Made by a program: the position numbers and the translations under genes. Shown piece by piece: positions 6,058 through 22,705 of a stretch of 64,000 nt of DNA. Numbering within the stretch: position 1 is the stretch's first letter; every line of letters begins with the position of its first letter. Below the pieces are notes generated by a model. That model worked only from the letters and a program-made list of their open reading frames with translations, ran no database searches and was not told the origin of the DNA. The DNA is from Escherichia coli (GTDB lineage: Bacteria > Pseudomonadota > Gammaproteobacteria > Enterobacterales > Enterobacteriaceae): the NCBI RefSeq assembly GCF_044324785.1, contig NZ_CP172127.1, one strand, 5' to 3'.

Positions 6058-7059
6058 ATGAGTAAAGTTGGTATTAACGGTTTTGGTCGTATCGGTCGAC
6101 TGGTGTTGCGTCGATTACTTGAAGTCAAAAGCAACATAGACATTGTTGCTATTAATGATCTCACTTCCCCAAAAATTCTCGCCTACCTGTTGAAACATGA
6201 TTCAAACTACGGACCGTTCCCCTGGAGCGTTGATTTTACGGAAGATTCACTTATCGTTGATGGAAAAAGCATCGCGGTTTACGCCGAAAAAGAGGCTAAA
6301 AATATTCCATGGAAAGCGAAAGGCGCAGAAATCATTGTCGAATGTACTGGCTTTTATACCTCCGCCGAGAAATCGCAGGCGCACCTTGATGCTGGTGCGA
6401 AGAAGGTGTTGATTTCCGCCCCTGCCGGTGAAATGAAAACCATCGTTTATAACGTCAATGACGACACACTGGATGGCAACGACACCATTGTTTCCGTGGC
6501 GTCATGCACCACTAACTGCCTTGCGCCGATGGCCAAAGCCTTGCACGACAGTTTCGGAATAGAAGTCGGCACGATGACGACCATTCATGCCTATACCGGC
6601 ACTCAGTCACTGGTGGATGGTCCGCGAGGTAAAGATCTACGCGCTTCACGTGCAGCGGCAGAAAATATCATTCCCCACACTACAGGTGCGGCAAAAGCCA
6701 TTGGTCTGGTGATCCCGGAACTGAGCGGCAAACTGAAAGGTCATGCGCAACGCGTGCCGGTGAAAACAGGTTCGGTCACTGAGCTGGTATCGATTCTCGG
6801 AAAAAAAGTGACTGCCGAAGAGGTGAATAACGCACTTAAACAAGCAACCACCAATAACGAGTCATTTGGTTATACCGATGAAGAAATAGTCTCTTCCGAT
6901 ATCATTGGCAGCCATTTCGGTTCGGTGTTTGATGCCACGCAAACGGAAATTACCGCCGTGGGCGATTTACAACTGGTGAAAACGGTCGCCTGGTACGATA
7001 ACGAATATGGCTTCGTCACGCAGCTTATTCGCACCCTCGAAAAATTCGCTAAACTCTGA
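6058..7059 (+). CDS. gapC: glyceraldehyde-3-phosphate dehydrogenase paralog (intact)
   Basis: 333-aa uninterrupted ORF with NAD-binding [10 protein letters not shown] and catalytic [10 protein letters not shown] motifs; between cybB and aldA. Confidence 0.85.
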
Positions 7060-15584: not shown

Positions 15585-18648
<3,064 letters not shown>

Positions 18649-18663
18649 TTACTCTATTTTCCT

Positions 18664-19560
18664 TCAGTAACAGCAGTAGCGAATAAAATAAAAAAATACC
18701 GGAGCGGTGAAAATTAATGAGTCAATCCTGTCAAGGAGTCCGCCATGTCCTGGTAATAGTTTTCCGCTATCTTTAACACCAACATCTCGTTTGATGGCTG
18801 ACATCACTACATCGCCGCAAAAACCACTAATACCAATTAACAAACCCGCTAATAATGCCTGTAATGTATCTAGCGGTGTCAGCAACGGTCCAATAATCAG
18901 TGACGCAATCATGGTGGTGATTACGCCGCCCATCAGACCTTCCAATGTTTTTCCCGGGCTGACTTTAGGGACCACTTTTCTTCTGCCGCAGGATTTTCCC
19001 CATAAATACTGTGCAATATCGTTTGACTCGGTTAATGCCAAAAGAAATAACACCAGTAACGCCCCGCCCTGGATATTTGTGGTTGGCAACATTAATAACC
19101 AGGCGGCATGACTCAAGGTGAAAACGGTCATTATCCAGCCACAAAAAATGGCACTCACGGTATGCAGAAAACCAGAGGGGTCACCCACTAAAACTCGCCA
19201 GGTGGCTAATATCAGAAACCCAGCCAAAGGTATAAATAACAGAAACAGCTCAAAGCAATTAAAACCGATAAGCAAATAGTTAAGAGGAATACCCCAATAT
19301 AACCAACGCGGAAAATGTACAGATATAAGCGTACAATATTCTTTCAATGCCAGAAAACTTATCAGCGCAAAAAACGTCAATGTCATCCAGCGTGGACCTG
19401 AAATCACCATTGAAAAACAAATGACGATGCCCCACCAGGTACGAATACGTAATGTAACTTCATCCCCTTTTCTCTCCGGTAACCGCCATACTAGAAAACG
19501 GTTTATCAGCGTTGCTAAAATTAACAACGCGAAAAGTGTTGCCAGAGATTTTTCCAGCAT
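18664..19560 (-). CDS. ynbB: CDP-diglyceride synthetase (CdsA)-like phosphatidate cytidylyltransferase paralog
   Basis: 298-aa polytopic ORF with CdsA signature SAIKRDVGVKDSGKLLPGHGGLLDRIDS; start codon overlaps ynbA stop (TAATG). Confidence 0.85.
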   Translation of the reverse strand: MLEKSLATLFALLILATLINRFLVWRLPERKGDEVTLRIRTWWGIVICFSMVISGPRWMTLTFFALISFLALKEYCTLISVHFPRWLYWGIPLNYLLIGFNCFELFLLFIPLAGFLILATWRVLVGDPSGFLHTVSAIFCGWIMTVFTLSHAAWLLMLPTTNIQGGALLVLFLLALTESNDIAQYLWGKSCGRRKVVPKVSPGKTLEGLMGGVITTMIASLIIGPLLTPLDTLQALLAGLLIGISGFCGDVVMSAIKRDVGVKDSGKLLPGHGGLLDRIDSLIFTAPVFFYFIRYCCY

Positions 19561-20165
19561 TATCTTTCAGCGCTCATAAGAAGCACACTCCGACAACGAT
19601 TAATCGCAGTCCAGAGAAGCAGAATTGAAGCAATGCTCCATAAAAGATTATTCCATTGCATCCATTGTGGATAAATGGCAATGGCCAGCCCCCACAGACC
19701 AAATATTAACGCGCGATCGCTTTTGCCAAATGGACCGACATAACTACAAATACCGTTAATCGTCTGCGCGAGTAAACCGCAAAACTCGGTCAATATGGTG
19801 CAAAATAACATGAGTATCACGAGTGATGCATTACTTTCAGGTAAAAATAAAAACGGTAAATAGAGCGCAATATCGGAAATAACATCGCCAGTCTCATTCA
19901 AAATCGCCCCAAGACGTGTTTGCTGATTGCACTCGCGCGCCAACATGCCATCCAGCGCATTGAGTGCCATACGAATAAAAAGCACGATGGGCAATAGCAA
20001 AAAGAGGATGGGTTGTGCGACCAACATCAACAGCAATCCGGTAAAAAGAGAAAGCGCCAGTGCAGCAAGAGTGATGTGATTCGCTGTAACATGGTGCTTA
20101 TAAAGCCAAAACATCGTCGGCCTTAACAGCGACTGAAAGAGCGGTTTTATCTGGTAGAGCGTCAT
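19560..20165 (-). CDS. ynbA: CDP-alcohol phosphatidyltransferase family protein
   Basis: 201-aa polytopic ORF (start MTLYQIK) with DG..AR...GD...D-like motif (LDGMLARECNQQTRLGAILNETGDVISD). Confidence 0.8.
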   Translation of the reverse strand: MTLYQIKPLFQSLLRPTMFWLYKHHVTANHITLAALALSLFTGLLLMLVAQPILFLLLPIVLFIRMALNALDGMLARECNQQTRLGAILNETGDVISDIALYLPFLFLPESNASLVILMLFCTILTEFCGLLAQTINGICSYVGPFGKSDRALIFGLWGLAIAIYPQWMQWNNLLWSIASILLLWTAINRCRSVLLMSAER

Positions 20166-20335
20166 TATCAATCCTTGATAATTCTGTTTGCGCTATGGTG
20201 CATCAATTCCCCTGACGGAGATATCGCAACACGCCGCTTCATTAAAAATTCAGAATATATCAAGGTATTGGGGACTCACCGTCAGGAATGCTTATCCCCA
20301 ATAAATCAAGTGGTTAAAAATTATTACGCTGTTAT

Positions 20336-22642
20336 TCAATACAACTCATCAAGTTTTCTCATCGCTTGTTCCCGTATTGCGCGCGTCTTACCGTTAAGCG
20401 CCAGCTGCCGAACTAAATCCAGTTCAGGGTTAACAAGCTCTAACGCCAGCAAAGGATCACGTTTCAGCCTCGCCTTTAATACATCAACTGGAAAACGGGG
20501 ATTATTCATCGCCACAATCCACCACTCGGGATCAATTTCTGCCGCCAGTACTGCAGGCGGTGTGTGGCGGTTGTTAAGTGCGCCGAACTTGAAAAATGTG
20601 AGATTGCTTTTCGCCAGTGTACTCCACCATATACGATCCGGTTGTTTTGCCAGTACATCCAGTTGTGCTAACGCATCGGGGTCTAGTGCATAATAAACAC
20701 GTAACGCTTCGTTAACCTGCGCACGGGAACTGTTTTCCTGCCTCAGAAAAAACTTCGCCCAAATATCATTGCGTGGCATATTTTGCTGTAATTCCTTGAG
20801 GACAACAGCGGGTAAATTATCCCAACTAACTAATGCACTCTCTAAAAAGTCCCAGCCTTCCGAACGTATCAGAGAGGTGGCATTTAATAGCATCTGGTCA
20901 TCAACTTCACCGTGGCTAATCAGCTCAGACAAAATCATATCAGCGCTGGTTTCATATGCATCTGAATCTGCTTTCGGATTATTTTTTCGATGCGATAAAG
21001 CGCGATGCCAAATTTTTTGTTTCATCGCCGTACTCAGATACTGATTTTTCGCCAGATTACTCCACCCCGCAGGATCGTTGAAACGTGTCAATAACCGTTG
21101 TAAAGCAGCGTCAGAGTGAATTACCTGCATATCCCCACAGCAAAAATAGGCAGGAAATTTTTTCTCCATCTTTTTAACAAAATTAAACTGTAAGTTATCT
21201 GGCAATGCTAAAAATAACACACGTATTAGATCATCGTCATTCTCGAATTTTTGGTGTAAATATACTGCTATTTTGTCACTCTCTTGTGGCGTCATCCGCA
21301 ACAATTGACCATGGTGTTTCATCTCTGCCAGCTTTGACGCTAAGCTTGTGACAACATCGTTTGATGAATCGTTCGCCAACTGCATTGCCTGATTGTAGGT
21401 GAGTTGTCCTCCAGCACCGACCTGACGAATAGAGAAATCATCACTGCGGATATAGCCATCAATAATGGATTCGGGCAATAACCACGCATCTTTATAAAGC
21501 TCCTGAATGATCATACCCCAATCTCTTTTCGCCAGAGTCATGACGATATCCAGAGGGAGATTTTCACGTAGCGCAAGATTCAACGGACCGACACCATCAG
21601 GTAGATGACTAATTCGCGTCATTATTTCGACAGAGAGCGGTTCACGGTCGAGCAACCCCAGAACAACAGGCTGGTAACCCAATTGCTGATCGGTCAACTC
21701 CAGAATCTCATTGTCAGGCATATATCTCGCCATACTTGCAATCGTTTGTCCATCATTGCTATTAATAAGTTGTTTGCGTAGGTTAGCTGAAATTCCTTTA
21801 AGCCTTGGGAGAGTTCGCATTATGGCAAGATCAAATGTCGCAATGTCTCGTCCTTCAAATGCAGCAACTTTGCCTTCATCCAGCATTTGTAATTCCTGCA
21901 CTAATTCAGGTGAAGGCTTAGGGCGAAACAGCGCTTCTTTTTTCATCTGATTACAGACATTCCCTGCTATGCGAATATTGCTTCGCTTAAAAATTTCTTT
22001 CAGAGCATCTTCATCATTTATTAGCCCCCAATAATATGCATCAGGATTTATTATCATCAGCGCTTTTTTGACATTTTCAGTGTCATTTTTGTCACTCGCA
22101 CGGACCATGAATTCACTATTTGTCGAAGACGCAACAACAGGTGCAATTATGTCATTGATAAATATCCCACGCGCATTAATACTCCCCTTAATCGTAGACG
22201 GATTATCGTAATATGAGTCGATAAATACCAGTCCACTTGCATTTATCGAACCGGTAATTAACAGTGGTGAATCCGTAACTATATTCGTTGCCGTCACGTT
22301 ACCGAGAATAACCCATGGATTAGAAAGAGAGAAAGTGGAAATATTACCTTTGACTGTCAAATTGCCAAGAACAATCAATTTTTGATTACTCTCTATATTA
22401 CCTTCTACCACTAAATCGCCACGATGCACTTTCCAGTCCGATGCAGATAAACCGAAGGGGACAAGATTCACGCTACTGTTGATAGCTTGTTCAACTTGTT
22501 GTTTATCTTCAGCGGTAGCCGCAGAAAAAAATGGTTCAATATCAACTGCATTTGCAACACATCGAAGTTCCGCCTGTACTGGAAGACTCAGCATAAACAG
22601 GGGAAGTAAACCTATCCAGCTGCAAATCCTGGGCTTAAACAT
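20336..22642 (-). CDS. ydbD: large secreted protein YdbD
   Basis: 768-770 aa ORF with signal peptide (MFKPRICSWIGLLPLFMLSLPVQA); AT-rich; start ambiguous by 2 codons; synteny. Confidence 0.8.
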   Translation of the reverse strand: MFKPRICSWIGLLPLFMLSLPVQAELRCVANAVDIEPFFSAATAEDKQQVEQAINSSVNLVPFGLSASDWKVHRGDLVVEGNIESNQKLIVLGNLTVKGNISTFSLSNPWVILGNVTATNIVTDSPLLITGSINASGLVFIDSYYDNPSTIKGSINARGIFINDIIAPVVASSTNSEFMVRASDKNDTENVKKALMIINPDAYYWGLINDEDALKEIFKRSNIRIAGNVCNQMKKEALFRPKPSPELVQELQMLDEGKVAAFEGRDIATFDLAIMRTLPRLKGISANLRKQLINSNDGQTIASMARYMPDNEILELTDQQLGYQPVVLGLLDREPLSVEIMTRISHLPDGVGPLNLALRENLPLDIVMTLAKRDWGMIIQELYKDAWLLPESIIDGYIRSDDFSIRQVGAGGQLTYNQAMQLANDSSNDVVTSLASKLAEMKHHGQLLRMTPQESDKIAVYLHQKFENDDDLIRVLFLALPDNLQFNFVKKMEKKFPAYFCCGDMQVIHSDAALQRLLTRFNDPAGWSNLAKNQYLSTAMKQKIWHRALSHRKNNPKADSDAYETSADMILSELISHGEVDDQMLLNATSLIRSEGWDFLESALVSWDNLPAVVLKELQQNMPRNDIWAKFFLRQENSSRAQVNEALRVYYALDPDALAQLDVLAKQPDRIWWSTLAKSNLTFFKFGALNNRHTPPAVLAAEIDPEWWIVAMNNPRFPVDVLKARLKRDPLLALELVNPELDLVRQLALNGKTRAIREQAMRKLDELY

Positions 22643-22705
22643 ATGCACTCCATGCCATTAAAAAAGAAACAAAAGGGAAATGCATCTTTCCCTTTTGTAT
22701 ATTCG

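Follow-up and report, generated by a model that had tools for sequence, protein, structure and literature searches.

ydbD of Escherichia coli encodes a predicted exported protein that joins a bactofilin-like beta-helix to a long alpha-solenoid

The window analysed here, a stretch of 64,000 nucleotides of Escherichia coli DNA (RefSeq assembly GCF_044324785.1, contig NZ_CP172127.1), carries the chromosomal gene order hrpA-azoR-ynbDCBA-ydbD-pdxI-ydbA, all on the minus strand, and the gene considered in the present analysis is ydbD. The open reading frame (ORF) at 20336-22642 on the minus strand has the same extent as the RefSeq coding sequence of ydbD, starts with an ATG at 22642 and encodes a protein of 768 amino acids (aa). 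RefSeq, through its annotation pipeline PGAP, names the product 'DUF2773 domain-containing bactofilin'; the gene and its bactofilin-like label are thus already public, and the annotation carries essentially the same description as the one from which this work set out. The initial annotation, made from the letters alone, had described an AT-rich gene directly upstream of ynbABCD on the same strand, and both points agree with the data: the guanine-cytosine (GC) content of ydbD is 42.9% (39.3% at third codon positions, GC3) against 48.8% for the whole window, and 170 bp separate its stop codon from the ATG of ynbA, which is followed by ynbB, ynbC and ynbD. For comparison, pdxI has a GC content of 52.1% (GC3 51.6%), and low values are also found in ynbA (44.6%) and ynbB (42.8%). 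The ratio of nonsynonymous to synonymous substitution rates (dN/dS) between the E. coli and E. albertii copies is 0.17 over the whole length of ydbD and 0.10-0.20 in the regions of the mature protein, that of pdxI being 0.034. Since the value of 0.17 holds over the whole length, ydbD is a functional gene under purifying, albeit relaxed, selection.

The domain organisation of ydbD was analysed using structural models, family alignments and profile searches, and comprises the following segments, with the basis of each in brackets.

20336..22642, minus strand: ydbD coding sequence, 768 codons followed by a TGA stop at 20336-20338 (ORF list; RefSeq coding sequence; dN/dS)
22571..22642, minus strand: Sec-type signal peptide MFKPRICSWIGLLPLFMLSLPVQA, codons 1-24, with predicted cleavage before E25 (n-, h- and c-regions; hydropathy; predicted local distance difference test, pLDDT)
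22436..22570, minus strand: small alpha/beta element with a conserved helix (44-57), presumed N-terminal cap, codons 25-69 (models; family alignment)
22094..22435, minus strand: predicted right-handed triangular beta-helix of 5-6 rungs of 17-21 aa with G-N/D/S-I/L/V motifs, codons 70-183
21893..22093, minus strand: helical linker ending in a conserved L-F-R motif, codons 184-250 (models; alignments)
20582..21892, minus strand: predicted alpha-solenoid of degenerate LRV/HEAT-like repeats, codons 251-687 (model; Foldseek; family profile; Pfam in relatives)
20339..20581, minus strand: DUF2773 (PF10971), the predicted last repeats of the solenoid, codons 688-768 (Pfam, E 7.3e-46, 154.7 bits against a cut-off of 25)

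The family alignment was built by an exhaustive HMMER search and holds 164 representatives at E-values up to 0.001, about 30 of them full-length, with identities of 23-30%. AlphaFold2 gave a full-length model of YdbD with a pLDDT of 88.4 and a predicted template modelling score (pTM) of 0.77, and a separate model of residues 25-245 with values of 88.5 and 0.87, respectively. Values of pLDDT below 50 are confined to residues 1-24, and this segment is also the only strongly hydrophobic stretch of the protein in a hydropathy scan. By a heuristic reading, its organisation follows the pattern of Sec export and cleavage by signal peptidase I, with a positive n-region (MFKPR), a hydrophobic core of 15 residues (ICSWIGLLPLFMLSL) and the end PVQA/E (the stroke marking the cleavage site), which places the small residues V and A at -3 and -1, and with neither a lipobox nor a twin-arginine motif. 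The signal peptide proposed in the initial annotation is thus upheld, and YdbD is probably exported, with the periplasm as its likely location. About two-thirds of the aligned relatives have a comparable hydrophobic N-terminus, in-frame upstream starts restore one in the two closest relatives outside Escherichia, and the N-terminus of a paralog in E. coli O157:H7, described below, reads MNRINILVICMVLFFMTGNACA/TEW in the same notation.

The mature protein contains the repeats that the initial annotation had noticed as degenerate and of the G-N-I/V type. Seven G[NDS][ILV] motifs fall within residues 70-160 and a single one in the remaining 677 residues, and none of 20,000 shuffles placed seven such motifs in a 91-residue window (mean maximum 1.08). 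In the AlphaFold2 models each rung of residues 70-183 consists of 17-21 aa forming three short strands, and structure prediction agrees with the beta-helical or bactofilin-like fold suspected earlier, the triangular beta-helix superposing on bactofilins and other right-handed beta-helices. The element formed by residues 25-69 aligns throughout the family, short stand-alone members included, and in the models is presumed to cap the helix. On the other side, R240 is kept in at least 90% of the family members.

Length variants of YdbD are found within E. coli. An allele of 711 aa (proteins P0009 and P0011-P0017, P0012 being present on 88 contigs) lacks 57 residues within the beta-helix through an in-frame loss of roughly three rungs between the rung motifs 'KGN-I' and 'KGS-I', which maps to approximately 22187-22366 of the window (ydbD codons 93-152); the RefSeq name of this allele omits 'bactofilin'. 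Another variant, P0001, has 890 aa, 122 residues above the normal length, with 93% identity over 62% of the query, and may owe its extra length to duplication within the protein or to an artefact of assembly.

The long helical region expected from the letters is borne out by the AlphaFold2 model, in which residues 188-768 are entirely helical and about 45 helices build an alpha-solenoid of some 580 aa; DUF2773 appears in the model as the end of this solenoid, namely its last few helices. The best Foldseek matches of the solenoid, CAND1, PP2A-A and importin-beta, are of a generic HEAT/ARM kind and weak (E about 1e-3, template modelling score about 0.2). The profile of the YdbD family matches the LRV protein of Azotobacter vinelandii (1lrv) with an E-value of 4.9e-13, and the Pfam families LRV_2, LRV and HEAT are matched by 19, 15 and 14 of 51 aligned relatives, respectively, while a Pfam scan with the repeat models PF01816, PF25591 and PF02985 gave no detection in E. 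coli YdbD itself. The likeness to 1lrv and to HEAT-like solenoids thus lies in the all-alpha solenoid, the family-profile match and the LRV, LRV_2 and HEAT assignments of the relatives; unlike 1lrv, YdbD has no iron-sulfur domain and carries a beta-helix fused to its much longer solenoid, and the E. coli protein scores with neither LRV nor HEAT.

No Pfam family describes the module formed by the cap, the beta-helix and the 'FR' motif. In other proteins it either stands alone, with a total length of about 215-240 aa, or is fused to leucine-rich (LRR), ankyrin or DUF285 repeats, and examples from other bacteria (P0137, P0157, P0144, P0152, P0168 and P0177) are often devoid of a signal peptide. 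Given these fusions to interaction repeats, a role in interactions would fit the module. Distant homologs of YdbD include proteins of Tahibacter amnicola and of a metagenome-assembled genome of the Pseudomonadota, and a profile search of contigs with a narrower alignment (A4) returned two Escherichia loci.

A full-length paralog of 759-767 aa, 29% identical to YdbD, lies between ppnP and rdgC and has a signal peptide, a DUF2773 end and a beta-helix module nearer to the family consensus. It was located at 4026-6305 of L016 (E. coli O157:H7), at 5923-8226 of L008 (E. whittamii) and on L009. At least 434 of 5426 complete E. coli genomes carry this paralog, as do cryptic Escherichia clades. In L016 it is followed, with an overlap of 4 bp, by a 149-aa gene of the SF0329 family (6302-6751). 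The K-12 gene ykiA we take to be a remnant at the position of the paralog between ppnP and rdgC. Like ynbA, discussed below, ykiA is a BglJ-RcsB target (PMC3950696).

Taken together, the reading favoured here, to which a probability of about 0.55 is assigned, is that YdbD is a soluble envelope protein built of repeats, exported by the Sec route and without enzymatic activity, probably serving as a binding scaffold or adaptor in the periplasm, and that its gene is a unit separate from ynbABCD. Removal of the 24-residue signal peptide would leave a mature protein with a short right-handed triangular beta-helix, which is flanked on both sides by conserved helical elements and would be rigidly joined to the solenoid of about 580 residues with its degenerate LRV/HEAT-like repeats, and the surfaces of solenoid and beta-helix may hold a protein or glycan partner. 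A catalytic role appears improbable, the nearly invariant positions in the family alignments being Gly, Leu and one Arg with no catalytic signature; scans of YdbD with Pfam and NCBIfam gave no match to an enzyme family, NCBIfam returning a marginal MinC match only. The protein would be very scarce under laboratory conditions and would rise once the envelope stress response is switched on. In glucose minimal medium it accounts for less than 1 part per million of monomers (bioRxiv 10.1101/038851), and ydbD was 3.9-fold up on overexpression of sigma-E in one array, in a study whose main text names no ynb gene (PMC2731931). The architecture predicted by the models, an exported protein with a capped beta-helix and an LRV-type solenoid, is concrete and testable.

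Several considerations weigh against this reading. To call a repeat protein a scaffold is a default interpretation, which specifies no ligand. An obvious signal peptide is absent from roughly a quarter of the relatives in the alignment, and the module is therefore not intrinsically periplasmic. A search of the 450 bp upstream of ydbD for a sigma-E promoter (GGAACTT-N15-17-TCTGA/TCAAA-like, with at least 5 of 7 and at least 4 of 5 positions matching) found none but one weak candidate about 410 bp upstream; as the consensus is missing within this distance, the induction of ydbD by sigma-E may be indirect. Finally, one transposon screen marked ydbD together with ynbB as relevant to fitness, and the transcriptome of one mutant showed joint up-regulation of ydbD and ynbC, which leaves some room for shared regulation of ydbD and the ynb genes.

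The features bordering the coding sequence, which bear on its transcription, are as follows.

22659..22698, minus strand: intrinsic-terminator-like hairpin with a 12-bp stem and a U-tract, between the pdxI stop and the ydbD start (terminator scan; RNA fold -18.6 kcal/mol, z -3.4)
22648..22651, minus strand: Shine-Dalgarno sequence GGAG, 5 nucleotides (nt) upstream of the ydbD ATG (read in the sequence)
20266..20303, minus strand: stable stem-loop with a 10-bp stem and no U-run, 32 nt past the ydbD stop and ahead of the ynbA promoter region (RNA fold z -2.8)
20250..20257, minus strand: TATTCTGA, a match to the BglJ-RcsB core wwTTCykA, upstream of ynbA and outside ydbD (pattern search)

On the upstream side the putative pdxI terminator leaves about 16 nt before the ydbD ATG, and the promoter of ydbD was for this reason not located; a scan for sigma-70 promoters gave nothing above chance (6 found, 7.6 expected). 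On the downstream side, the initial annotation had suggested co-regulation or a functional link with ynbABCD, and had named independent transcription of ynbA as evidence against it. In its full form this would make ydbD and ynbABCD one transcriptional and functional module, co-transcribed by read-through, with the product of the Ynb lipid enzymes as the periplasmic target of YdbD. The shared strand and the gap of 170 bp speak for such a module, as does a terminator scan of this gap, which called no canonical terminator and did not call the hairpin at 20266-20303; transcripts may thus run on from ydbD into ynbA, although a stable stem-loop, which may be a 3'-end stabiliser, a weak terminator or of no function, does follow the ydbD stop. 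Against the module, ynbA has an activator-dependent promoter of its own, which is the evidence that the initial annotation had named: in Stratmann-type promoter fusions the fragment between ydbD and ynbA suffices for activation by BglJ-RcsB, the transcription start was mapped by 5' rapid amplification of cDNA ends, the centre of the BglJ-RcsB site lies 65-68 bp upstream of the ynbA start, and mutation of the binding site abolishes activation (PMC3950696). The 8-mer wwTTCykA is not enriched in the window (38 matches, 35 expected), and the copy upstream of ynbA is accordingly taken only as compatible with the published geometry.

The distribution of the genes is at variance with a module as well. 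Among the 5426 complete E. coli genomes, ydbD is present in 3990, ynbABC in 4605 and the pdxI flank in 5264, so that ynbABC occurs in at least 615 more genomes than ydbD. The interval between azoR and pdxI (15585-22642 of the window; L006, L007 and L014) is variable, and four arrangements, covering all four combinations of presence and absence, were found in Escherichia: ynbDCBA with ydbD, as in this window; ynbDCBA-pdxI in one strain, with ydbD deleted except for its first 30 nt and the region upstream of ynbA retained; azoR-pdxI without ydbD and ynbABCD; and pdxI-ydbD-azoR of E. albertii, with ydbD at the same locus and without ynbABCD. Six distant homologs lie in six unrelated neighbourhoods and the paralog in a further unrelated one, and genes for CDP-alcohol transferases or CdsA-like proteins occur in none of the six contexts nor at the paralog locus. 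There is hence no conserved linkage between ydbD and the ynb genes. Some strains do lack the entire ydbD-ynbABCD block, which would suit a module, and low GC is common to ydbD, ynbA and ynbB; the low GC, the joint fitness flag and the joint up-regulation are compatible with one silenced AT-rich domain, which could equally account for the shared screen phenotypes. A joint module is accordingly considered unlikely, and the link proposed by the initial annotation is not supported. ydbD would rather be an accessory gene of a low-GC, variable segment of the chromosome. Searches of YdbD against the PADLOC and PHROGs libraries gave no match, and an origin in a defence system or a phage is therefore not indicated. 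In one strain (H9) an IS1 element is inserted in ydbD.

The RefSeq name raises the question whether YdbD is a true bactofilin, whose beta-helix polymerises end to end into a periplasmic filament decorated by solenoid arms. Bactofilins (PF04519; BacA of Caulobacter, 2n3d; the Thermus protein, 6ria) are cytoplasmic proteins of about 100-200 aa with disordered tails; they lack a secretion signal, though many carry a membrane-targeting peptide at the N-terminus. In common with the YdbD model they have a right-handed triangular beta-helix built around a hydrophobic core, with about 18 aa to a rung and about six windings expected, and nearly all of the bactofilin core superposes on the model at 2.0-2.5 A. 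The Pfam Bactofilin model also matches residues 77-142, but below its cut-off of 27.9 bits, scoring 19.8 bits with the N-terminal 181 aa and 16.3 bits with the full length, and only 2 of the 51 relatives reach an E-value below 0.01. A search of PDB sequences with the profile of the N-terminal domain recovered no bactofilin, and Foldseek of this domain against the PDB gave nothing significant. Bactofilins are small proteins whose free beta-helix ends allow them to polymerise end to end, whereas YdbD has 768 aa, a Sec-type signal peptide and, at both ends of the beta-helix, ordered conserved helices (pLDDT mostly above 85), beyond which lies the large solenoid; moreover, a few copies per cell are ill-suited to a structural polymer. 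A periplasmic bactofilin filament is thus decidedly unlikely. Owing to the sub-threshold score, the secretion signal, the length and the ordered flanking helices, YdbD is described here as having, in the models, a bactofilin-like fold, and is not classed as a bactofilin.

A broader proposal of the same kind is that YdbD-type proteins form a widespread, undescribed class of exported bactofilin-like proteins, in which the beta-helix would self-associate in the periplasm and the LRV solenoid would recruit envelope partners, so that envelope stress would switch on a periplasmic polymer or scaffold. Literature searches on DUF2773 and on periplasmic bactofilins yielded no characterisation. This proposal is regarded as very doubtful. 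If true, periplasmic polymerisation of YdbD would extend bactofilin biology beyond the cytoplasm, which the present evidence makes unlikely.

Among other beta-helical systems, the C-terminal domain of MinC resembles YdbD in its small right-handed beta-helix and in the rung motif 'GD-hydrophobic ... GN-hydrophobic'. The matches are marginal (NCBIfam E 0.0096, 15 bits against a cut-off of 273; PDB 4v02, E 0.4), and MinC differs as a cytoplasmic division inhibitor with another partner domain. Beta-helical adhesins and secretion domains, such as tapirin (6n2b), HxuA (4i84), FHA (1rwr) and 'putative adhesins' of Bacteroides (3ljy, 3pet), are 8-15% identical to YdbD. Compared with them, YdbD has a much smaller number of rungs, lacks the export machinery of two-partner or autotransporter systems and carries a large helical domain for which they have no counterpart. 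These structural matches would suggest that YdbD acts on a polysaccharide or a surface as a beta-helix enzyme or adhesin, in the manner of tapirins, of pectinase-type lyases or of the passenger domains found in secreted adhesins. With 5-6 rungs only, there is no long groove; the family alignments reveal no conserved acidic or basic catalytic cluster, and Pfam and NCBIfam no enzyme family; an outer-membrane translocation domain, a lipobox and a two-partner secretion partner are all missing; and sequence identity to such structural matches is 8-19%. This role is consequently very unlikely.

A direct part in the detoxification of methylglyoxal, implied by some database names (in one source, 'protein involved in detoxification of methylglyoxal'), reportedly goes back to a 2007 screen by Kim et al., as relayed by two papers that cite it, and the neighbouring gene encodes an aldo-keto reductase; it is highly improbable, since the current name of that neighbour is pyridoxine 4-dehydrogenase, screens can yield indirect phenotypes, YdbD, a probably exported repeat protein, contains neither an oxidoreductase nor a glyoxalase nor a thiol-dependent domain, and nothing in its architecture suggests a detoxifying enzyme.

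Beyond pdxI, the ORF of the autotransporter ydbA (23774-31459, minus strand) is uninterrupted in the window, with 2561 aa, and contains repeats of about 100 aa (GKTTVDGKDSTGTEINGNNGKVIQDGDLDVSGGGHGIDITGD...) that are nearly identical and follow one another in a long array. Its equivalent is split and frameshifted in strain N3, and E. albertii has no ydbA.

ydbD is among the remaining E. coli genes without a tested function. The present analysis replaces the label 'DUF2773 / bactofilin' by a concrete predicted architecture and removes, as unsupported, the tempting guilt-by-association tie of ydbD to the lipid genes of ynbABCD. For the family as a whole, it delineates the beta-helix module as an uncurated domain family that recurs in combination with other interaction repeats.

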